A program made the translations under genes and the position numbers. 64,000 nt of DNA from Acidobacteriota bacterium (GTDB lineage: Bacteria > Acidobacteriota > Terriglobia > 20CM-2-55-15): positions 4,267-68,266 of the forward strand of contig QHWY01000087.1 of NCBI GenBank assembly GCA_003223875.1, in the 5' to 3' direction. Numbering within the stretch: position 1 is the stretch's first letter; each line of letters begins with the position of its first letter. The notes beneath the pieces are model-generated. The model saw nothing but the letters and a program-made list of their open reading frames with translations, was not told the origin of the DNA and did no database searches. Positions 8,346 through 57,320 of this stretch are shown in pieces.

Positions 8346-8419
8346 CTGTAGCGGCGCTCTACGAGCGCCGGCAGTCCGGCAATTTAGAGATCGCCGGCGG
8401 TCATAGACCGCCGCTACAG
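8346..8419. repeat. Palindromic element family 1, copy B (74 bp) between rpsM and rpsK
   Basis: CTGTAGCGGCGCTCTACGAGCGCCGGC-(20 nt)-GCCGGCGGTCATAGACCGCCGCTACAG, with imperfect 27-bp arms. Confidence 0.85.
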
Positions 8420-9480: not shown

Positions 9481-10485
9481 ATGCTTTGGAAGGGTTTTCA
9501 AAAACCGAAAAGACTGACCGTCGGGAGCGAGCCGCCCGCGACGGAAACCTACGCTCAATTTTCAGCGCAGCCATTTGAGCGAGGATTTGGAACAACCATC
9601 GGCAATGCACTCCGTCGCGTACTGCTGTCGTCGATCGAGGGCGCGGCGATCACTGCCGTAAAAATCGAAGGTGTGTTGCACGAGTTCTCATCGATTCCGG
9701 GCGTCGTCGAAGATGCCACCGATATCATTCTCAACCTGAAGCAGATTCCGCTGAAGCTGCACGGCGAGGAGCGTAAAACGATTTACCTTAAAGGGCTCCA
9801 GCCTGGCGCCTACACCTCAGGCAATATCGAACACGATCCCGATATTGAGATTCTGGACAAGAACATTTATATCGGCACGGTGAGCGAAGGTGGTGCGTTG
9901 CAGATCGAAATGCGTGTCCAAAATGGGCGAGGGTATGTTTCCGCCGACCGCAATTTCGATGAGGATCTTGGAATCGGTTACATTCCCGTCGACTCGGTTC
10001 ATTCGCCGGTCCGCAAAGTTAATTACTGGGTCGAAGCCGCCCGCTTGGGTCAGGTCACCGATTACGACAAACTCACCATCGAAGTCTGGACCAACGGTTC
10101 GATTACCCCCCAGGATGCGCTGGGATTGGCGGCGAAGCTGATCAAGGACCACATGCAGATCTTCATTCAATTCGAAGAGAAACCCGAGCCCGTGGAGGAG
10201 CAGACTGAGGTGCGGCACGACGCTGTTATCGAGCACTTGAACAAGTCCGTGGACGAACTCGAACTGTCGGTCCGCTCCTACAATTGTCTGAAGAATGCCA
10301 ACATCCGGACCATCGGAGAACTCGTCACCAAGACCGAGGCCGAGATGCTCAAGACGAAGAACTTCGGCCGCAAGTCTCTCAACGAAATCAAAGAAATCCT
10401 CGGCAGTATGGGCCTGCAACTGGGCATGAAACTGGATGACCACGGCCGGCCAGTGATGCCCGCCTCGACAGAGCAAACAGTGTGA
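9481..10485 (+). CDS. rpoA: DNA-directed RNA polymerase subunit alpha
   Basis: A 334-aa protein with N-terminal and C-terminal alpha domains, in alpha-operon order. Confidence 0.95.
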
Positions 10486-10486
10486 T

Positions 10487-10945
10487 ATGAGACACAGGAA
10501 CGCGCATCGCAAACTCAGCCGGAACACGTCGCACCGCCGCGCGTTGCTTCGTAATCTCGTTACCGATTTTCTGGATCACGGCCGTCTCATGACAACTCTG
10601 CCGAAGGCAAAGGAGATTCGGCCGCTTGCCGAAAAGATGATCACGCTCGGCAAGCGCGACAACCTTCACGCCCGCCGCCAGCTTCAGGCATTTCTTCTTC
10701 GCGAGGCTGTAGCAAAGAAAGTATTCGATACGATTGCCCCTCGTTTCGCCGATCGCAACGGGGGCTACAGCCGCATTATCAAGCTCGGAAACCGTAAAGG
10801 CGACGGCGCGGATTTGGCCATCATCGAATTGCTGGGCAGCGAACTGGAAGTGAAGAAAGCCGAACGCGCGGAAAAAGACAAAGAGAAGCAGACGAAGCAA
10901 GCGGGCAAGGAAAAGAAGGAAGAAAAGGAAGAAAAGGAAGAGTAA
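10487..10945 (+). CDS. rplQ: 50S ribosomal protein L17 with a Lys/Glu-rich C-terminal tail
   Basis: MRHRNAHRKLSRNTSHRRALLRNL is L17. The last ~30 aa are EKDKEKQTKQAGKEKKEEKEEKEE. Confidence 0.93.
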   Translation: MRHRNAHRKLSRNTSHRRALLRNLVTDFLDHGRLMTTLPKAKEIRPLAEKMITLGKRDNLHARRQLQAFLLREAVAKKVFDTIAPRFADRNGGYSRIIKLGNRKGDGADLAIIELLGSELEVKKAERAEKDKEKQTKQAGKEKKEEKEEKEE

Positions 10946-11245
10946 GGTTCATTTAGCGATTTTCTTGCACCTCGCGTGTGTGCGGGGGTCGACGTCAGTT
11001 CAATAGCTGGACCCGATTGGGCGATGGACCACACCCTGCGGTCCGAAGCTCAAGTATTTGACAGCAAAGTCTTGTTCAGTTCGCCTTTTATAAGAAATTC
11101 GCCCAACGCTTCCTAGGACTGCCGAAACATCTCAGGACTAACAAAAGAATTCCGGCCGCGCGGCTATTCCTCGACGCGTTAACATGGCGTCTGTTGAATA
11201 TCTCAAAACCCGTTTCACCGGGAAGCGCGATCGATGGAAAACATT

Positions 11246-11310
11246 AATACGCGATAGGCAAAAGCACTTCAAATTGATGCTTCTGAAATAACCGCAGCCT
11301 TTCGTTTTTT
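11246..11310 (+). repeat. 65-bp direct repeat, copy 1 (TAATACGCGATAGGCAAAAGCACTTCAAATTGATGCTTCTGAAATAACCGCAGCCTTTCGTTTTT)
   Basis: It is identical to copy 2 at 12287-12350. Its 3' end forms a 9-bp stem with the following AGGCTGCGG. Confidence 0.85.
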
Positions 11311-12096
11311 TTAGGCTGCGGTACGGGCAGTTTTCATTACGAAGTTTACAGGTGCCAAGTTATTGGAATTGATCTGACGGTGCCTAGCGGGATCAAAAGC
11401 TCACACGTCAGTTTTGTTCAAGCTAATTCAGCGCAAATTCCGATCGCAAACAATTCTGTTGATGCAGTAGTTTGTCATCATACGCTGGAACATTTTGATG
11501 ATTATCGAACGACTCTCGTGGAGATCAATCGAATCTTAAAGGATGGCGGACTGGTCTGGATCGCTGTCCCTAACGGTTTTGGGCTGGACGATGAACTTTA
11601 TCGTTTTGTCTTTTCGGGAGGTGGTCACGTAAATCGTTTTTCTAGGGATCAGTTGATACAGGATGTTCATCGTCATACCAGATTCAGGTTGGTACAAGAG
11701 GTGGATCTCTTCAGCAGTTTCATTTATCTCAAAAAACCCACTCTTGAGGAATACCAGTACTACCCGCCACCAGCCCGTTTCTTGTTTCATATTCCGGATG
11801 GCACTAGCACGGCTGTTGTGTTTTCTCTCAATGCACTCGCACGCTTAATCGATCGACTATTTGGATACCGAATCAGCCAGTACGGCTGGGGTTTTGTGTT
11901 CGCCGCAGAGAGCGCATCTTTGCCGCCGTTACACCGCCCTTACTTCAATGTTTGTTCGAAGTGCGGCTCCGGGGTGTCCGCCAAAGAGCTCCGCGACAAG
12001 GGGCTATCGAGACAATGTTTTGGAGTCGGTTTTTACTATTGCCCGATTTGTCAGCAGCTAAACGCTTTTGTTTCACCTCCCATCGGATGCGAATAG
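11287..12096 (+). pseudogene. 5'-truncated class I SAM-dependent methyltransferase (Methyltransf_11-like) with a C-terminal Cys-rich zinc-ribbon-like tail
   Basis: The frame stays open upstream of the GTG at 11380 and encodes motif I (LGCGTG) plus VIGIDL directly abutting repeat copy 1. There is no start codon and no N-terminal region. Local GC (~45%) is lower than the surroundings. Confidence 0.6.
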
Positions 12097-12286
12097 AGTT
12101 TCAACGTGGATGAGCTCATACAATTGGCTGCCCCTGATTTGGTCTGATTAGAAAAAATCGTAGCCTCTTCGGAAGCATTCCTTGTCAGATTTGCACTTCA
12201 AAAATCGACGGGATTTGTCCGTGCTAAGGCCAAGCCGCAGATCCACGCGCATCTATTCGCTCGTACAGACGAAGATAGCGAACTGG

Positions 12287-12350
12287 TAATACGCGATAGG
12301 CAAAAGCACTTCAAATTGATGCTTCTGAAATAACCGCAGCCTTTCGTTTT
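12287..12350 (+). repeat. 65-bp direct repeat, copy 2
   Basis: Identical to 11246-11310. It lies immediately upstream of the DUF1592 gene. Confidence 0.85.
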
Positions 12351-12383
12351 TGTAGCTATTTCATCGGTGTAGTTTTACAATTT

Positions 12384-14768
12384 TTGGCATCGGAGGCCCC
12401 GATGACAAACCGGTTTTTTGCGTGGGCGGCTGCCTGTCTGTCAGTCCTTCTTGCGTCCGCCATATCTGGCGCACCCGCACCTCAAGAGGCGCCGTCAACG
12501 CGCTCTGCCATCGATCAATATTGCGTCGGTTGTCACAACGACAAGTTGAAGACCGGAGGGCTTTTTTTAAGCGGCTTAGATATCGCTCGCGCTGGTGAAC
12601 ATCCCGAGATATGGGAAAAAGTGGTTCGCAAACTTCGCGGCCGTATGATGCCTCCTCCGGGCCGACCGCGTCCGGATGAACGCGGATATGATGCGCTGGT
12701 CGCATCTCTGGAGACGTCGCTGGACGGGGCTGCTGCTGCCAATCCGGATCCGGGACGCACCGAGACGTTCCGCCGTCTGAATCGTACCGAATACCACAAC
12801 GCGATTCGCGATCTGTTGACGCTGGATGTTGATGTTGCGTCGCTGCTGCCGAAGGACGACGCCAGCTACGGCTTTGATAATGTGAGTGTCGGGGGTCTTT
12901 CGCCGACACTGCTCGAAAGATACCTGGCTGCAGCGCAGAAAATCAGCCGGCTTGCCTTGGGCAGCCCTGTGCGGACACCGGCTTCTAACATTGTGCTCGT
13001 CCCGCCGGATCTCACTCAGGAAGACCATCTTGACGGATTGCCCTTCGGAACCCGCGGCGGAACGATTGTCCCCTACACGTTTCCGGTCGATGCCCAATAT
13101 GACATCCAGATTCGCTTGATGCGGGACCGCAATGAGCATATCGAGGGTCTCACCGAACCGCATCAGATGGATCTCACCCTGGACGGAAACCGTGTGCAAG
13201 TATTTACCGTCAATCCCAAACGGGCGAACACGCGGGGCATCGATTTCACGGATGCTGACGTCGACAGTAACCTGAAAGTGCGCCTGGCGGTGAAGGCCGG
13301 ACCGCACGAGATCGGCGCCACTTTCATCAAGAAAGACTCAGCCTTGATCGAGACCACCGAGCAGCCTTATCAGGCGCACTTTAACTACTACCGGCATCCG
13401 AGAATTCAGCCCGCCGTCTACTCTGTCGCGATTACGGGACCTTTCGATACCAGCGGGGTGACCGACACGCCGAGCCGCCGCCGCATTTTCGTTTGCCGTC
13501 CCGCGAGACCTTCCGAAGAAGAGCGCTGCGCCACAACTATCATTTCGACTTTGGCTCGGCGCGCCTATCGCCGCCCGGTCAACACCGACGATCTGCGAGT
13601 GCCGCTGGCGTTTTACAAGGACGCTCGCGCCGAAGGAGATTTCGAAGCCGGTATAGAAATGGCGCTGCGCGCGATTCTGACGAGCACGGAATTTATATTT
13701 CGCATTGAACGCGACCCGGAGGGTGTTGCACCGAACAGGCCATATCACATTAGTGATATCGAGCTCGCATCCCGCTTATCGTTCTTCTTGTGGAGCAGTA
13801 TTCCCGACGACGAATTGCTCGATTTGGCGGCTCAAGGGAAACTTCACGAGCCGGCAATACTGGAACGGCAGGTGCGGCGAATGCTGGCCGACGCTCGCTC
13901 GCAATCATTGGTTACAAATTTCGGCGGACAGTGGTTGTACCTCCGTAACCTGGCGGACGCGGGTCCGGATGGCAGAATATTCCCCGATTTCGATGACAAT
14001 GTGAGGCAAGCGTTCCGGCAAGAGACAGAGTTGTTTTTGGAAAGCATCATAAAAGAGGATCGAAGTGTTATCGATCTTTTGAGTGCTAATTACACCTTCC
14101 TGAACGAAAGACTGGCGAAGTATTACGGTATTCCGAATGTGTACGGAAGTAACTTCCGGCGTGTGACGTTGCCGAATGACAGCATTCGCGGCGGTCTGCT
14201 TGGAAAGGGAAGCCTTCTCACGGTCACTTCGTACGCCAACCGCACCTCACCGGTTCAGCGCGGAAAATGGGTTCTCGAAAATATCCTTGGGACGCCGCCG
14301 CCACCCCCGCCGCCAAACGTGCCGCCTCTGACGGACGACAATCCGGTGGGTAAGGTCCTGACGATGCGTGAGCGCATGGCCCAACACCGCTCCAATCCGG
14401 CGTGCTCGGCTTGCCATCAGCTGATGGATCCGATCGGCTTGTCCTTCGAACACTTCGATGCGACCGGCCGTTGGCGGAATCAAAGCGAAGGAGATGTTCC
14501 GATCGACGCAGCGGGAGCGCTGCCAAGCGGCGTTACATTTGAAGGTGTCACTGGTCTTAAGAAAGCGTTGCTGGCGCGCCCCGAGTTGTTTGCCACAACC
14601 GTCACGGAAAAAATGCTCACGTATGCCTTAGGCCGAGGCATGGATTACTACGATGCTCCGGCAGTTCGCGCGATCGTGCGCGAAGCCCGCAATAATGACT
14701 TTCGCTTCTCGGCGCTCATTTTGGGCGTTGTGAAAAGCGCACCATTTCAGATGAGGAGGTCCCAATGA
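12384..14768 (+). CDS. DUF1592/DUF1585/DUF1587/DUF1588/DUF1595-family protein with N-terminal signal peptide and a CxxCH heme-binding motif (planctomycete-type cytochrome-c-like domain)
   Basis: A 794-aa protein with a signal peptide and CVGCH at aa 47-51. The architecture is the one that pairs with DUF1552 in Planctomycetota, Acidobacteriota and Verrucomicrobiota. Confidence 0.75.
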   Translation: MASEAPMTNRFFAWAAACLSVLLASAISGAPAPQEAPSTRSAIDQYCVGCHNDKLKTGGLFLSGLDIARAGEHPEIWEKVVRKLRGRMMPPPGRPRPDERGYDALVASLETSLDGAAAANPDPGRTETFRRLNRTEYHNAIRDLLTLDVDVASLLPKDDASYGFDNVSVGGLSPTLLERYLAAAQKISRLALGSPVRTPASNIVLVPPDLTQEDHLDGLPFGTRGGTIVPYTFPVDAQYDIQIRLMRDRNEHIEGLTEPHQMDLTLDGNRVQVFTVNPKRANTRGIDFTDADVDSNLKVRLAVKAGPHEIGATFIKKDSALIETTEQPYQAHFNYYRHPRIQPAVYSVAITGPFDTSGVTDTPSRRRIFVCRPARPSEEERCATTIISTLARRAYRRPVNTDDLRVPLAFYKDARAEGDFEAGIEMALRAILTSTEFIFRIERDPEGVAPNRPYHISDIELASRLSFFLWSSIPDDELLDLAAQGKLHEPAILERQVRRMLADARSQSLVTNFGGQWLYLRNLADAGPDGRIFPDFDDNVRQAFRQETELFLESIIKEDRSVIDLLSANYTFLNERLAKYYGIPNVYGSNFRRVTLPNDSIRGGLLGKGSLLTVTSYANRTSPVQRGKWVLENILGTPPPPPPPNVPPLTDDNPVGKVLTMRERMAQHRSNPACSACHQLMDPIGLSFEHFDATGRWRNQSEGDVPIDAAGALPSGVTFEGVTGLKKALLARPELFATTVTEKMLTYALGRGMDYYDAPAVRAIVREARNNDFRFSALILGVVKSAPFQMRRSQ

Positions 14769-16126
14769 GCACAGCGAATGCAAGCCCGACAGGGCGCAGC
14801 AATCAACCAATGATCGTCACGAAAAAAGCTCTGCCCCGGCGAACGTTTTTGAGAGGCATGGGGGTCACCGTAGCTCTGCCCTTGCTGGATGCAATGGTTC
14901 CAGCACTTTCCGCAATGACGCCGGCCACCAATCCGGTGCGGCGGTTCGGGTTCGTTTACATCCCCATGGGAATGAACCCGGCACCCTGGATACCTAAAGC
15001 TGAAGGCAAGATCTCCGAACTATCGCCTTCTCTCGCATCGCTCATGCCGGTTATGGATCAAGTGACGGTCATCACCAACACTGAACTGAAGATGGCCAAC
15101 TCTGCCGGCAATCACGCGACCGCCAATTCGTCGTTCCTGACCGCCACCCTCGCCAAGAGAACCGAAGGCAACGATTACGTATTGGCGACGTCGATCGATC
15201 AAGTGATCGCAAAACAAATCGGAAGGGACACCCAGATCCCGTCGCTCGAGCTAGGAACCGATCTCATTGCGATGGTCGGTAACTGCGATAACGGATATGC
15301 CTGCGTGTATCAGAACAACTTGTCCTGGTCGTCCCCGACGAATCCGCTTCCCACCGAGGCAGATCCCCGCATCGTTTTCGAGCGCTTGTTCGGTGATGGT
15401 GGCTCGGCAAAGGACCGCCAGACGGAACTGCGAAAGAATCGGAGCATTCTGGATTGGGTCACCGAAGACATGGCGCGGCTTCAAAGGAAACTGGGTTCGG
15501 GAGACCGCACGAAGGTCACTGAGTATATCGATTCCGTACGTGAAGTCGAGCGTCGTATCCAGAAGGCGGAACAACAGGCGGGTGAGGCCGTGTTGCCGGA
15601 TCTGGATCGTCCCGCGAGCGTACCGGCAGCCTGGGAAGATCACGTAAAACTGATGTTCGATTTGCAGATTCTGGCTCTGCAGGCCGACATCACGCGCGTT
15701 ACTACTTTCCAGATGGCCCGCGAGACCAGCACGCGGACCTATCCGCAGATCGGCGTGCCCGAGCCGCACCATCCCACATCGCATCACTCGAACGATCCGG
15801 AGAAGCTGGCGAAGCTGGCGAAGATCAATGCGTATCATGTCTCGCTCTTCGCTTACTTCCTGAACAAGCTGAAAGCCACGCCGGATGGTGACGGCACATT
15901 GCTAGATCACTCGACCTACATGATTGGCAGTGGTCTCGGCAATCCGTCTCTCCACAACCATACGAATCTGCCATGCGTCGTGGTTGGTGGGCACAAAGGG
16001 GGACGGCACATCAAATACGCTGAGCCGGTGACTTTGGCGAACGTTCACCTGACGCTGCTGGAAAAAGCGGGTATTCACCAACAGGGCTTTAGCAATAGCA
16101 CCGGACGGATCGAGGAGCTGCTGTGA
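14765..16126 (+). CDS. DUF1552 domain protein (Tat-signal, RRTFLRGMGVTVALP)
   Basis: A 453-aa protein whose start overlaps the upstream stop (ATGA). It has a twin-arginine motif and is the conserved partner of DUF1592 proteins. Confidence 0.75.
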   Translation: MSTANASPTGRSNQPMIVTKKALPRRTFLRGMGVTVALPLLDAMVPALSAMTPATNPVRRFGFVYIPMGMNPAPWIPKAEGKISELSPSLASLMPVMDQVTVITNTELKMANSAGNHATANSSFLTATLAKRTEGNDYVLATSIDQVIAKQIGRDTQIPSLELGTDLIAMVGNCDNGYACVYQNNLSWSSPTNPLPTEADPRIVFERLFGDGGSAKDRQTELRKNRSILDWVTEDMARLQRKLGSGDRTKVTEYIDSVREVERRIQKAEQQAGEAVLPDLDRPASVPAAWEDHVKLMFDLQILALQADITRVTTFQMARETSTRTYPQIGVPEPHHPTSHHSNDPEKLAKLAKINAYHVSLFAYFLNKLKATPDGDGTLLDHSTYMIGSGLGNPSLHNHTNLPCVVVGGHKGGRHIKYAEPVTLANVHLTLLEKAGIHQQGFSNSTGRIEELL

Positions 16127-19853: not shown

Positions 19854-20242
19854 GTGCTAGAGCACTTCTCACATTGGCTGTGCTACCTGACCGGTATGCA
19901 ATCTGCCGTTTGGATCCAAAAACGCCTGTGCCCGAGTGGGCAATCGGAGATGACTTCGTGTCGATCTCGCGCACACGCGATGAGTTGTCGATCGTTTGTC
20001 CCGAACGCAACCTACCACAAGAGGCGTCCTGCTCGAGAGGGTGGCGAATCTTGAAATGTGAGGGCCCCCTCGATTACACGCTGACCGGTATCATAGCTTC
20101 TCTCGCTGAGCCGCTTGCGGATGCAGGCGTATCCATCTTTCCGCTCGCGACGCATGATACCGATTACGTCTTAATCAAAGAACCGCAGCTTGATCTCGCC
20201 ATTCAGGCGCTTACAGGTTACGGTCACGCCGTCCGTGTCTGA
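19850..20242 (+). CDS. ACT-domain-containing small protein
   Basis: A 130-aa protein with an ACT-like beta-alpha-beta-beta-alpha-beta pattern (LIKEPQLDLAIQAL). A 4-bp overlap with the esterase gene. Confidence 0.55.
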   Translation: MSARALLTLAVLPDRYAICRLDPKTPVPEWAIGDDFVSISRTRDELSIVCPERNLPQEASCSRGWRILKCEGPLDYTLTGIIASLAEPLADAGVSIFPLATHDTDYVLIKEPQLDLAIQALTGYGHAVRV

Positions 20243-20987
20243 ATTGCCGAAGGTCCCAAAACTTCCAAAACTTTATAGTGACCTTTCTTCCTGGTTCCAT
20301 CTGTTGTCTGACCCCGCCGATTATGCCGAAGAAGCAGAATTTGCCCGCGGATTGCTTGTCGACGCCTCAAGCACAGTGCCCGTGACGCTGCTCGAACTCG
20401 GCTCCGGTGGGGGAAACAATGCATCGCATTTGAAGGCACACTTCAAGATCATGCTTGTCGATCTATCTCAGGGAATGCTCGATTTGAGCCAGACGATTAA
20501 TGCTGACTGTGAGCACCTCCAGGGAGATATGAAAACCATTCGCTTAGGACGGATCTTCGATAGCGTCCTCATACATGATGCGATCATGTACATGACTTCC
20601 GAACAGGATCTCCGCCAAGCGATCGAAACCGCATTTGTCCATTGCAGGCCTGGCGGTGCCGCCCTGTTCATGCCGGATCTTATTCGCGAAACCTTTGTGT
20701 CGCTGACCACGCATGGCGGCCATGACAGCACTGCCGGTGACGGGCGCGCCATCCGGTACATCGAATGGACGTTCGATTCCGATCCAGCCGATACCACATA
20801 TACCGTCGATTTCGCTTACTTGCTTCGCGAGAAGAATGGGCCTGTGCGGGTCGTCCATGACACCCATGTGTTCGGGATTTTCCCTCGTGAATCGTGGCTG
20901 CGGCTATTTCAAGAAGCCGGATTTGAGCCACGCGCCATGGCAGATCCGTGGGGACGCGAAGTGTTTGTATGTAAGAAGCAAGAGTAA
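20190..20987 (+). CDS. Class I SAM-dependent methyltransferase
   Basis: Motif I LELGSGGGNNA and post-I MLVDLSQGML. The true start may be the TTG at 20244 just after the ACT gene stop. Confidence 0.75.
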   Translation: MISPFRRLQVTVTPSVSELPKVPKLPKLYSDLSSWFHLLSDPADYAEEAEFARGLLVDASSTVPVTLLELGSGGGNNASHLKAHFKIMLVDLSQGMLDLSQTINADCEHLQGDMKTIRLGRIFDSVLIHDAIMYMTSEQDLRQAIETAFVHCRPGGAALFMPDLIRETFVSLTTHGGHDSTAGDGRAIRYIEWTFDSDPADTTYTVDFAYLLREKNGPVRVVHDTHVFGIFPRESWLRLFQEAGFEPRAMADPWGREVFVCKKQE

Positions 20988-20999
20988 GTGGTGAAGCGC

Positions 21000-21199
21000 C
21001 ATTCCCCTCCTTGCATCACCGCAAGGGGTGGCTGCGTCATCAAAGAAATGCCGCGAAGCCACCGAAGCTGACGCAGCCGGGGTGGTTTTCGAATGAATCC
21101 AAGAGGAAAACCACCCCGGCTTCGCGATCAGCGGAGGCTTCGCAATATTTTCTTGATCGCTCGGCCACCCCTCCTTGCGGTGATGCAAGGAGGGGAATG
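21000..21199. repeat. 200-bp nested palindromic element (outer ~33-bp inverted repeats CATTCCCCTCCTTGCATCACCGCAAGGGGTGGC / GCCACCCCTCCTTGCGGTGATGCAAGGAGGGGAATG, inner perfect 15-bp stem GCCGGGGTGGTTTTC)
   Basis: Seen directly. It lies between convergent genes (MTase + and a hypothetical -), and the ORF-track 'ORFs' inside it are artefacts. Confidence 0.8.
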
Positions 21200-28494: not shown

Positions 28495-28670
28495 CCCCTA
28501 ATTTGAGGTGTTGCAAAACTGCCGCAAACCGGTTTTCGTCTGCTGTAGCGGCGGTCTATGACCGCCGGTACTTCGTTGATTCTGCGAAAAACCGGCGCTC
28601 ATAGAGCGCCGCTACAGTAAGAACCGAACCCGCTATTCCGTAGTTTTGCAACACCCTCAACTTAGGAGGG
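28495..28670. repeat. Composite nested palindromic element: family-1 copy C (28543-28617) embedded between outer inverted repeats CCCCTAATTTGAGGTGTTGCAAAACT / AGTTTTGCAACACCCTCAACTTAGGAGGG
   Basis: Both the inner and the outer inverted repeats are visible directly. It lies in the pheA to ICL-family gene spacer. Confidence 0.8.
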
Positions 28671-32458: not shown

Positions 32459-32543
32459 CGAGAAAATTCGGGGCCAGACGGGTGAATTCCCTATTTTGAA
32501 CTGCAAAAATAGGGAATTCACCCGTCTGACCCCGAATTTTCTC
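32459..32543. promoter_or_regulatory. 38-bp-arm near-perfect palindrome (GAGAAAATTCGGGGCCAGACGGGTGAATTCCCTATTTT / AAAATAGGGAATTCACCCGTCTGACCCCGAATTTTCTC) in the sir/transporter divergent intergenic region
   Basis: Seen directly, with one mismatch in 38 bp and a 7-nt spacer. It ends 25 bp upstream of the transporter ATG. Confidence 0.7.
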
Positions 32544-51716: not shown

Positions 51717-51733
51717 GATGTCGGGCTCTCCCG

Positions 51734-51847
51734 CTGTAGCGGCGGTCTATGACCGCCGACAATACAGCAATTTGCGAGATCGCCGGCGGTCATTTCTTGA
51801 GGCTGCGCGCTATCGCGCTTGCGCTTCGCGGACCGCCGCTTCTACAG
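51734..51847. repeat. Palindromic element family 1, copy D (degenerate/expanded)
   Basis: The left arm CTGTAGCGGCGGTCTATGACCGCCG is intact. The right arm is split (GCCGGCGGTCAT ... GACCGCCGCTTCTACAG). Confidence 0.65.
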
Positions 51848-55287: not shown

Positions 55288-55297
55288 GGGTCTGTAA

Positions 55298-55421
55298 ATT
55301 CCCCTCCTCGCAGAGGAGGGGTGCCCGAAGGGCGGAGTGGTCAGTTCGGCGGAATGTTGCCGGTCTGACCACCCCGTCTGCGCCTACGGCGCAGCCACCC
55401 CTCCTCTGCGAGGAGGGGAAT
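55298..55421. repeat. MITE-like element with 27-bp terminal inverted repeats (AATTCCCCTCCTCGCAGAGGAGGGGTG / CACCCCTCCTCTGCGAGGAGGGGAATC), each terminus itself a perfect 9-bp-stem hairpin, with two more hairpins inside
   Basis: Seen directly. It fills the entire treS-mak/glgE spacer. Confidence 0.8.
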
Positions 55422-57320
55422 CTACTCCTTCCTCAATATATGAGCCGCCACTTCATAGGGCCTCAGCTCCACATAATTCCTCGGACCCTGCCACGTGAAT
55501 CTAGCGCCCGTCAGCAGATCCACCATTCGATAGGGATGTCGCACGTCGATTCCCAAATCGTCCACGGGTAACTCCACAAATCCAGATTGAGTCCAGACAG
55601 AATCCAGATTAACGATGGTCAGAATGACGTTCCGCTTGTCCCGAGTTCGCTTGCTGTAGCAAACAATCTGGTCGTTATTGATTGGGTGGAAGTGCAAATG
55701 CTCATTCGATTGGAGCGCCGGATTTTCTCTTCTTATTGCATTCACGCGGGAGATGAACGCTCTGAGGCTCGACGGATCGTACACATTGCCCTGTTTGATC
55801 TCGTATTTCTCAGAGTTCAGATACTCCTCACTTTCCGTTTCCCGCGGCACGTTTTCGCAGAGCTCATAAGCCGGTCCATATATCCCGTAATTTGCGCCGA
55901 GCGTAGCCGCCAGCACGAGGCGAACCATGAAGGCCGGACGTCCGCCGCGCTGCAGGTATTCGTGGAGGATATCGGGCGTATTGGGCCAGAGATTCGGCCT
56001 GAAAAATTCAGCCACCTCCGTTTGCGTCAACTCTGTGAAATATTCGATGATTTCGTTTTTCGTGTTGCGCCACGTGAAGTACGTGTATGACTGAGTGAAC
56101 CCCAGCTTTGCCAGCCGATACATGATGTTGGGACGAGTAAAGGCCTCCGATAACAAAATCAGATCGGGATTTTTCTTCTTGAGATCACGGATCATCCATT
56201 CCCAGAAGTCGAAGGGTTTCGTATGCGGGTTATCGACGCGGAAAATCCGGACTCCCTGCTCGATCCAAAACTCGACAATGCTCTTCAATTCTTCCCAAAG
56301 CGATCGCCAATGTGGCGATTCGAATTCGAAGGGATATATGTCCTCATATTTTTTCGGAGGATTTTCCGCGTACTGAACCGTTCCATCCGGCCGCCATCGA
56401 AACCATTCCGGATGTTGCCGGACGTACGGGTGATCCGGCGAGCATTGATAGGCGAGATCCAACGCAACATCGATCCCCCTGCTTTTCGCAGCCGCTACAA
56501 AGCGCCGAAAATCGTCGAGAGTTCCAAGCTCGGGGTGAACGGCCTTGTGTCCGCCCTGTTGGGAACCGATCGCCCACGGGCTTCCGGGCTCGCCAGGCGC
56601 GGCTTCGCGCGCGTTGTTTTTCCCTTTGCGATGGGTGTGCCCGATCGGATGAATAGGAGGAAAGTAAAGAACGTCGAAACCCATTTCAGCGACTTCGGGA
56701 ATGATGCGCTCGCAATCTTTGAATGTCCCGCAGGACCGTGGAAACATTTCGTACCAGGTACTGAAGCGCGCACGAACCGGATCGACTGCAACCCTTAGCT
56801 CCCGATAATGGGAGGCCCTGGATCGGTCCGCATAGCTCGATGCGAGTGCAGCGAGACGATCATCGACATCTTCGATTCGAAGATGCCGAGCGGCGTGGTG
56901 GAGCTTCTGCGCATCGGCGCCCATCGCGCGCTCACTGGCGGCCTTTAGCAGTTCCGCGCCGATTTGAAGATCGACCGTGACATCTTGATTGGCGGCAACT
57001 CTTTTGAGGAAATCTTTGTACCAGGTTTGAAAAGGATCGATCCAACCCGTGATGGTGTATATGTAATGGCCGAGCTTCTCAACCGGAAACTCAGCACTCC
57101 ACCGGTCGTTGCCGAGCAGCTCCATGGCAATTTCCGTCCACGGTTCGTCATCCTCGTGGCGGTATCGCACAACGCCCTCAATCGCCTCGTGCCCATCGGC
57201 GAAGATATCCGCTTCAACAGCGACCGTTTCCCCGACAACCCGTTTGATCGGAAACCGCCCGCATTCGAGTTCAGGCTTCACCCCCCGAATGATCACTCGC
57301 TCCGGAGGCCGCTCGCTCAT
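55422..57320 (-). CDS. glgE: Alpha-1,4-glucan:maltose-1-phosphate maltosyltransferase
   Basis: GlgE-type GH13_3 with N-terminal domains (RFPIKRVVGETVAVEADIFADGHE). The start is probably the internal Met at ~57320 or 57383. Confidence 0.88.
   Translation of the reverse strand: MSERPPERVIIRGVKPELECGRFPIKRVVGETVAVEADIFADGHEAIEGVVRYRHEDDEPWTEIAMELLGNDRWSAEFPVEKLGHYIYTITGWIDPFQTWYKDFLKRVAANQDVTVDLQIGAELLKAASERAMGADAQKLHHAARHLRIEDVDDRLAALASSYADRSRASHYRELRVAVDPVRARFSTWYEMFPRSCGTFKDCERIIPEVAEMGFDVLYFPPIHPIGHTHRKGKNNAREAAPGEPGSPWAIGSQQGGHKAVHPELGTLDDFRRFVAAAKSRGIDVALDLAYQCSPDHPYVRQHPEWFRWRPDGTVQYAENPPKKYEDIYPFEFESPHWRSLWEELKSIVEFWIEQGVRIFRVDNPHTKPFDFWEWMIRDLKKKNPDLILLSEAFTRPNIMYRLAKLGFTQSYTYFTWRNTKNEIIEYFTELTQTEVAEFFRPNLWPNTPDILHEYLQRGGRPAFMVRLVLAATLGANYGIYGPAYELCENVPRETESEEYLNSEKYEIKQGNVYDPSSLRAFISRVNAIRRENPALQSNEHLHFHPINNDQIVCYSKRTRDKRNVILTIVNLDSVWTQSGFVELPVDDLGIDVRHPYRMVDLLTGARFTWQGPRNYVELRPYEVAAHILRKE

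Follow-up and report, generated by a model that had tools for sequence, protein, structure and literature searches.

Deletions between direct repeats can proceed by RecA-independent slipped misalignment or template switching, by single-strand annealing or by RecA-dependent crossover, and the target-site duplications left by transposons typically measure 2-14 bp. Examples of direct-repeat deletion have been described for post-replication gaps in E. coli (PMC7145654) and for Deinococcus (PMC4627823), and systems that switch templates include fork stalling and template switching/microhomology-mediated break-induced replication (FoSTeS/MMBIR; PMC2621351), Pol-theta-type end joining (PMC7165422) and a bacterial reverse transcriptase in microhomology-mediated end joining (bioRxiv 10.1101/2022.03.14.484287). 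The locus described here lies in a 64-kb stretch of DNA (the window, meaning that whole stretch) from an NCBI metagenome-assembled genome (MAG) contig of an uncultured soil Acidobacterium (Terriglobia). In it, the remnant of a methyltransferase (MTase) gene stands between rplQ, which encodes ribosomal protein L17, and a DUF1592-family gene, and is bracketed by two identical copies of a 65-bp sequence, R. Comparison with conspecific contigs shows that within this one species a native accessory MTase is present at the locus in some strains and absent in others, with three alleles: an intact gene, a deletion, and the two-repeat form of the window. We tentatively read the window form, with rather less than an even chance of being right, as a genuine but rare intermediate of gene loss, in which an intact gene was patched and then deleted.

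Conspecific contigs were anchored on the left by rplQ, taking contigs that encode the window's exact L17 protein, and on the right by the DUF1552 gene that follows the DUF1592-family gene. The identical L17 protein was found on 17 contigs (soil metagenomes and one NCBI MAG), which are ~99.2-99.95% identical to the window where they align. Around 12 independent contigs from several projects carry the intact allele (those named being L001, L002, L004, L010, L012, L019 and L022-L025), in which a gene for a 277-aa MTase, beginning MENILAELTEQRTVVDLGCGTG, starts 289 bp after rplQ and is followed by one R and then by the DUF1592-family gene. From position 11310 onwards the window matches these intact alleles base-perfectly, and the sole structural difference between the two forms is that R (65 bp) occupies the place of the 36 bp ATTAGCTGAGTTAACGGAACAGCGAACTGTGGTGGA, a net gain of 29 bp. 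The deletion allele, which reads ATGGAAAACAT/R/GTAGCTATTTC...DUF1592 (a slash marks a join here and below), is present in L007, L009, L011 and L013; the MTase is absent, one R is left, and the allele is exactly the window minus one repeat unit of 1,042 bp. For instance, when L011 and L013 are compared with the window by BLAST, their lone R can be aligned with each of the two window copies, and they lack 1,042 bp. Contig L005 carries the left junction of this allele and stops inside R. An earlier note on this DNA, made from the sequence alone, had taken the second copy of R for the native leader of the DUF1592-family gene and the first for the extra one, and had raised the prospect of genomes in which rplQ, a single 65-mer and the DUF1592-family gene follow one another. 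Both expectations are borne out: R stands at the copy-2 position in every population allele, and such genomes exist (L007, L009, L011 and L013).

The locus runs in the order rpsD, rpoA, rplQ, MTase remnant, DUF1592, DUF1552, and its features in the window are the following:

10487-10945, + strand: rplQ (ribosomal protein L17; Pfam Ribosomal_L17, E = 1.2e-36), which closes the rpsM-rpsK-rpsD-rpoA-rplQ operon

10946-11233, + strand: spacer between rplQ and the MTase, rich in single-nucleotide polymorphisms (SNPs) and falling into population haplotypes alpha, beta and gamma, the window being beta

11234-11244, + strand: retained start of the MTase gene, ATGGAAAACAT (Met-Glu-Asn plus 2 nt), as aligned to intact alleles

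11245-11309, + strand: R copy 1 (the extra copy), replacing 36 bp of the MTase, ATTAGCTGAGTTAACGGAACAGCGAACTGTGGTGGA, codons 4-16

11291-11322, + strand: hairpin across the right junction of copy 1, with arms ACCGCAGCCT at 11291-11300 and AGGCTGCGGT at 11313-11322, a 10-bp stem and a 12-nt loop

11310-12096, + strand: remainder of the MTase gene, codon 16 (last base only) through the TAG stop, 100% identical to intact alleles

12097-12286, + strand: native spacer from the MTase stop to R, 190 bp, identical in all intact alleles

12287-12351, + strand: R copy 2 (the native copy), ending 50 bp before the DUF1592 ATG and present in every allele

12402-14768, + strand: DUF1592-family gene (Pfam PSD3/PSD5/PSD4/PSCyt3/PSD2), the first of a DUF1592-DUF1552 pair

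14765-16126, + strand: DUF1552 (HXXSHH) gene (Pfam E = 2.5e-98)

The structural alleles are spread over the SNP haplotypes of the population. SNP matrices place each of them on more than one haplotype, the beta haplotype being found with the intact allele (L025), the deletion allele (L009, L011, L013) and the window form, and the alpha haplotype with the intact allele, the deletion allele (L007) and also L005; the patterns are mosaic, and metagenome contigs may themselves be mosaics. The intact and deletion alleles are both present in the CRIT18-1/SAMN089028xx sample series, and an identical copy of the window's 788-aa DUF1592-family protein is encoded on the deletion-allele scaffold L013. Two further kinds of variation were seen close by. 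Contigs L010 and L025 have dense SNP blocks in the 3' end of rpoA and in rplQ (10185-10479 and 10708-10768), indicating either that the contigs are chimeric or that a more divergent lineage has contributed DNA by recombination, and the Lys/Glu-rich tail of L17 varies in length, with a 9-nt deletion in L023 (10916-10924).

The repeat itself, TAATACGCGATAGGCAAAAGCACTTCAAATTGATGCTTCTGAAATAACCGCAGCCTTTCGTTTTT, occurs in exactly two copies in the window, at 11245-11309 and 12287-12351. They are identical at 65 of 65 positions, lie in the same direct orientation and make up the only long perfect direct repeat of the 64 kb, within which there is not a single N; the native template lies 977 bp downstream of the replaced MTase stretch. 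No third copy was found in the window at up to 3 mismatches, and no match to R arose in any of 100 shuffled sequences. Searches of GTDB representative genomes and of viral contigs returned no match to R, and JGI metagenomes hold it at this locus only. R as a multicopy or mobile repeat was rejected on these grounds (two window copies, no GTDB or viral match, a single JGI locus). R as a structured RNA, a terminator or a promoter was rejected as well: neither of its strands has a fold more stable than that of shuffled sequence (z = -0.74 and -0.44), all Rfam families stay below their gathering scores (the lone weak match, snoZ185 at 23.7 bits against a threshold of 50, lies outside R), and no sigma-70-like promoter or terminator signal was found in it on the + strand. 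The repeat described in the earlier note is thus real and its two copies are identical, with coordinates off by one base at either end (copy 1 starts at 11245 rather than 11246, and copy 2 ends at 12351 rather than 12350). It is also, as the note's reading required, not a widespread repeat, there being no third window copy, no match in a GTDB representative and no JGI locus other than this one. The GC content that the note put at about 45% between the copies was roughly right at 47.4%.

What lies between the copies is most of an MTase gene. Its frame is open from 11287 to 12096, with the TAG stop at 12094-12096, and the product belongs by homology to the class I S-adenosylmethionine (SAM) dependent MTases (Methyltransf_11/23/25 families), with a Pfam Methyltransf_11 match that starts at profile position 3 (E = 2e-17), motif I (LGCGTG) at 11311-11328 and a C-terminus of the form CSKC...CPIC (CxxC...CxxC). 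Compared with the intact 277-aa protein, the window product is 100% identical from residue 17, the start and residues 4-16 being gone. The retained start reads into R as MENINTR-stop, with the frame shifted and a stop 7 codons in. In agreement with the earlier note, which had described the gene as 5'-truncated and lacking a start codon, there is no ATG, GTG or TTG before 11380; the first in-frame start is a GTG at 11380 (238 aa), downstream of motif I. Since this start comes after the SAM-binding loop, the MTase is dead in the window, and the gene there is a pseudogene. A second, unrelated Methyltransf_11/23 gene of 250 aa lies ~8 kb downstream in the same cluster (window ~20235-20987; L106 9415-10167).

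The MTase belongs to a family that is widespread in Acidobacteria/Terriglobia, with 187 matches of about 277 aa, the best 120 listed ranging from 75% down to 47% identity. Homologues with as little as ~50% identity still share the N-terminus of the family, MEN(I/V)LA.LTE.Q.VVDLGCG. The ATGGAAAACAT that remains in the deletion allele is this conserved gene start, and therefore the deletion allele is a scar and not an empty site predating an insertion. As judged from these alignments, the intact allele is ancestral, with the window form and the deletion both derived from it. Homologues at 70-74% identity occupy unrelated genomic contexts, and this MTase or a DUF1592 gene lies within 5 kb after rplQ in 0 of 80 related species, so the gene order is species-specific. 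The MTase may have moved to this site at some earlier time, which is not the event that the repeat records. The segment between the R copies is the lowest-GC stretch of the window (GC 47.4% and GC3 0.47, as against a window mean GC of 54.7% with a standard deviation of 2.4, and a GC3 of 0.63-0.68 in the neighbouring genes). Low GC as a sign of recent transfer was rejected, however, because it is a trait of the MTase family: in two other lineages and contexts, too, homologues have a GC content 4-7 points lower than that of the DNA around them.

The two junctions of the extra copy can be read to the base. The left junction, J1, is ACAT/TAATACG and is common to the window and the deletion allele; the right junction, J2, is CGTTTTT/TTTAGGCTGCG, which may also be written R/TTTAGGCTGCGG, and is private to the window. 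Neither shows microhomology. At J1, ACAT/TAAT is to be compared with the native ACAT/ATTA and CTGG/TAAT, and at J2, TTTTT/TTT with the native TTTTT/G and GGA/TTT; the T-run at J2 is 5+3 = 8 long rather than 5, which fits a blunt join. J1 is blunt, unambiguous and shared, and therefore arose once and was inherited by descent. In a census of six diagnostic junction strings across contigs L001-L025, J1 was found in L005, L007, L009, L011 and L013, and J2 in none of the contigs. The 20-mers that mark each form are GGAAAACATATTAGCTGAG for the intact allele, GGAAAACATTAATACGCGA for J1, TTCGTTTTTTTTAGGCTGCG for J2 and TTCGTTTTTGTAGCTATTT for R followed by the DUF1592-family gene.

J2 is flanked by an inverted repeat, whose arms form the hairpin listed above. 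The pairing between the 3' end of the repeat and the first MTase codons, pointed out in the earlier note as 9 bp, is present and extends to 10 bp. The fold has a dG of -12 kcal/mol (z = -4.63), and none of 200 shuffles folded as well. Both arms are native: ACCGCAGCCT belongs to the 3' part of R and AGGCTGCGGT to the motif-I codons, and in the intact allele they are ~1 kb apart. An inverted repeat of at least 10 bp within 25 nt on each side was met at 72 of 200,000 random junctions (3.6e-4); the inverted repeat at J2 is thus very improbable by chance and therefore points to a physical process acting through DNA structure. The geometry is what one would get if the stem held two single-stranded ends together and these were ligated, and it is also that of a circularisation or tandem-duplication junction of a unit made of the remnant plus R. 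Two other sequence similarities were noted near the junctions. A 9-bp direct repeat, AGCGAACTG, occurs once within the deleted 36 bp and again 1 nt before the native R begins, and is at neither junction. The last 20 nt before J1, CGCGATCGATGGAAAACAT, are loosely similar to the first 20 nt of R, CGCGATAGGCAAAAGCAC (11196-11244 versus 11245-11264), again not at the junction.

If the window form is a genuine intermediate, the route would begin with rplQ, the intact 277-aa MTase, the 190-bp spacer, R and the DUF1592-DUF1552 pair. Codons 4-16 (36 bp) would then have been overwritten by a direct 65-bp copy of R from 977 bp downstream, in a single break-repair or replication template-switch event in which both joins were blunt and the joined ends were plausibly held together by the native 10-bp inverted repeat between the motif-I codons and the 3' part of R. 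The outcome would be two perfect 65-bp direct repeats flanking the gene remnant, and recombination or slippage between them would drop one R and the remnant (1,042 bp) to give the common deletion allele. This route implies that the two-repeat arrangement exists in cells, that the order ran from the intact allele through the window form to the deletion, and that the inverted repeat had a role in the joining. In its stronger form, namely that a patch made without microhomology and guided by the inverted repeat created the direct repeats that then drove clean excision of the gene across the population, the proposal appears to us plausible but rather more doubtful than otherwise. If it holds, what looks in many strains like a blunt 1-kb deletion would be the product of two steps, a patch and a repeat recombination, rather than of one illegitimate join, and the closing of a hairpin loop held by a 10-bp stem would be an undescribed end-joining geometry.

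A serious rival, itself short of an even chance in our judgement, is that assembly or automated repair joined the left part of a deletion allele to the right part of an intact allele, so that the two-repeat form exists in no cell. A number of points weigh in its favour and against a genuine intermediate. Everything to the left of J2 is deletion-allele sequence (the spacer, ATGGAAAACAT and R) and everything to the right is intact-allele sequence (the MTase from codon 17, R and DUF1592), and J2 was found in 0 of the ~25 independent retrieved contigs that cover the locus. The 238-aa ORF that J2 creates has NCBI as its sole source and was not found in ENA, JGI or Logan assemblies from the same environment; with its GTG start it is annotated as PYS02455.1 (locus tag DMG16_08835) on the 122.5-kb NCBI MAG contig and is a member of the intact protein's cluster. 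The blunt junctions and a 65-nt patch templated 1 kb away fit no well-characterised bacterial pathway that we know of, and the inverted-repeat geometry could not be derived from standard template-switch models worked by hand, which predict either that 30 extra nt are retained, or that the copy is inverted, or that the T-run is 5 rather than 8 long. Forward or backward slippage via the 9-bp AGCGAACTG, snap-back priming on the 10-bp inverted repeat and T-run priming were tried, and none reproduces the window. The locus-tag prefix DMG16 matches that of the sister DMG15 (L001), which shares a population with CRIT18-1, and the source MAG is therefore assigned to the Angelo grassland study, the source sample belonging to BioProject PRJNA449266. 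Its pipeline consisted of IDBA-UD followed by automated scaffold repair (procedure in PMC5079060, applied in PMC6784897). In that repair, regions of zero coverage under stringent mapping are identified, reads from the 1-kb flanks are reassembled with Velvet and the region is replaced, or else filled with Ns (PMC5079060). A cut-and-paste step of this kind would leave just such a footprint, a short stretch swapped for another. Furthermore, the samples are strain mixtures exactly here, and contig ends fall at the MTase start or at R. L005 ends at exactly position 55 of R, as expected for a k = 55 assembly whose graph ends where two paths merge, and two contigs of a single sample, L003 and L108, end one on each side of the locus. 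(L108 starts at 12368, right after a G/T SNP at 12367, and L003 ends at 11085, right before a SNP.) Since public contigs break at strain-variable positions, haplotype linkage across the breaks is unreliable. Finally, ~2 kb away, exactly where its SNP haplotype switches, the sister curated MAG L001 (GCA_003222765.1) carries a private change of its own, with 3 bp in place of 78. This change is in-frame in DUF1592, 78 bp becoming AAA (window 13166-13243; L001 10650-10653), all other contigs keep the 78 bp, and it represents a real variant or else a scar left by the same assembly and curation pipeline. Against a chimera, and for the window form as a real intermediate, J2 shares no k-mer with either common allele. 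R and the MTase start are not linked by any shared k-mer, a de Bruijn graph built from reads of the intact and deletion alleles would hold no path leading from R into the MTase, and without supporting reads no graph path leads to J2, so that J2 reads should have existed. The breakpoints fit no documented k (30-200 by 10; 40, 60, 80...; 41, 61...), and the idea that 65 is the assembler's k was discarded, 65 and 66 being absent from the documented k values of the source project. Errors that the repair could not fix should have turned into Ns, of which the window has none; the 10-bp inverted repeat at J2 would have to be a ~4e-4 coincidence; and in the ~20 kb covered by independent contigs there are no other private structural anomalies, only 1-3 nt indels.

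The order of events might also be reversed, a 1,013-bp blunt deletion having come first and a deletion-allele cell having later regained the MTase remnant and R, which could occur by Campbell-type integration, via the 65-bp R, of a 1,042-bp circle made up of the remnant and R, or by homology-facilitated illegitimate recombination with intact-allele DNA. We regard this as improbable. The window does equal the deletion allele plus one remnant-plus-R unit, J2 would be the circularisation junction of that unit, whose ends the 10-bp inverted repeat would hold, and the mosaic SNP patterns are compatible with frequent recombination. However, two independent blunt illegitimate events would be required, no circle, tandem duplication or other J2-bearing molecule appeared in the L001-L025 census, and the regaining of a dead gene fragment would not be favoured by selection. 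Most unlikely of all is the reading given in the earlier note, that foreign DNA was inserted between rplQ and DUF1592 as a promoter-less, truncated MTase cassette that duplicated a 65-bp target. It draws on the perfect direct repeat flanking a low-GC segment, on the single-R contigs without the MTase, on the presence of homologues (70-74%) in other contexts and on the absence of the gene after rplQ in all 80 related species. It is refuted by the intact alleles, ~12 conspecific contigs carrying the full-length 277-aa MTase and one R at the same site, as most conspecific contigs do, and by the 11-nt scar, the gene's first 11 nt, which the supposedly empty site keeps. No transposase, integrase, attC-like fold or terminal inverted repeat was found at the locus, including at the ends of 11310-12286, the only domain matches within the bracketed segment are to methyltransferase families, and the MTase unit has no match on plasmids, phages or viral contigs. 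There is likewise no intI/attI and no cassette array, the neighbours of this single "cassette" being ribosomal-protein genes, DUF1592, DUF1552, an ankyrin-repeat protein and an esterase. Low GC is family-wide, and a 65-bp duplication far exceeds known target-site duplications.

Hence, what might be taken for a foreign cassette beside the ribosomal super-operon is not to be counted as a mobile element or as horizontal transfer. The locus provides a clean and well-sampled case of an accessory gene that is present or absent by strain in a wild population of a soil Acidobacterium, with all junctions known to the exact base. If the window allele is real, it is a rare snapshot of the two-step origin of a deletion without microhomology, and of a joining associated with an inverted repeat that current models of bacterial repair do not predict. 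If it is not, automated MAG curation has fabricated a plausible rearrangement at a strain-variable site, which matters for the mining of structural variants from MAGs. In both cases the event is of a familiar sort, whether gene decay or misassembly at a strain-variable site.

Other repeats were seen elsewhere in the window. A REP-like palindromic element, GCCGGCGGTCATAGACCGCCGCTACAG, occurs in both orientations at 2710-2748, 8381-8419, 28539-28568, 28579-28617 and 51733-51763, and one copy sits in the rpsM-rpsK spacer, inside the ribosomal-protein operon. A second, nested inverted-repeat family, CCCCTCCTTGC...GCAAGGAGGGG, and a separate near-perfect palindrome of 38 nt are found at 21000-21199, 55294-55425 and 32460-32543; strain L107 has a 3-nt difference inside the nested inverted-repeat copy at 21024.

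Set beside the known systems, the locus shares features with each and differs from each. As with a transposon target-site duplication or an integron cassette, direct repeats bracket a promoter-less ORF of atypical composition. In contrast to these, the repeat is a 65-bp native intergenic sequence, sister strains carry a native full-length gene, and there is no recombinase, attC or inverted end; in contrast to a target-site duplication, the single-R "empty site" also retains a gene remnant, ATGGAAAACAT. As in templated insertion, a short deletion is filled by an exact copy of nearby sequence in direct orientation, but those models need microhomology at each switch and here there is none at either junction. 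Moreover, the template lies ~1 kb off, the patch is 65 nt long, and it is an inverted rather than a direct repeat that flanks the junction. We know of no templated-insertion pathway of this kind documented for Acidobacteria. Strain-mixture misassembly or scaffold repair (PMC5079060, PMC6784897) is matched by the polymorphic locus, by the co-occurrence of alleles in the same samples and by an anomaly private to one curated MAG, and is not matched by the non-random inverted repeat or the lack of Ns, nor could a mechanical route to J2 be reconstructed. Finally, direct-repeat deletion differs from the present case in that one of the repeats here is new, made by the gene-breaking event itself, and in that the conversion of the window form into the deletion allele is one that we infer; it agrees with it in that identical repeats flank ~1 kb and the population holds the exact one-repeat product.

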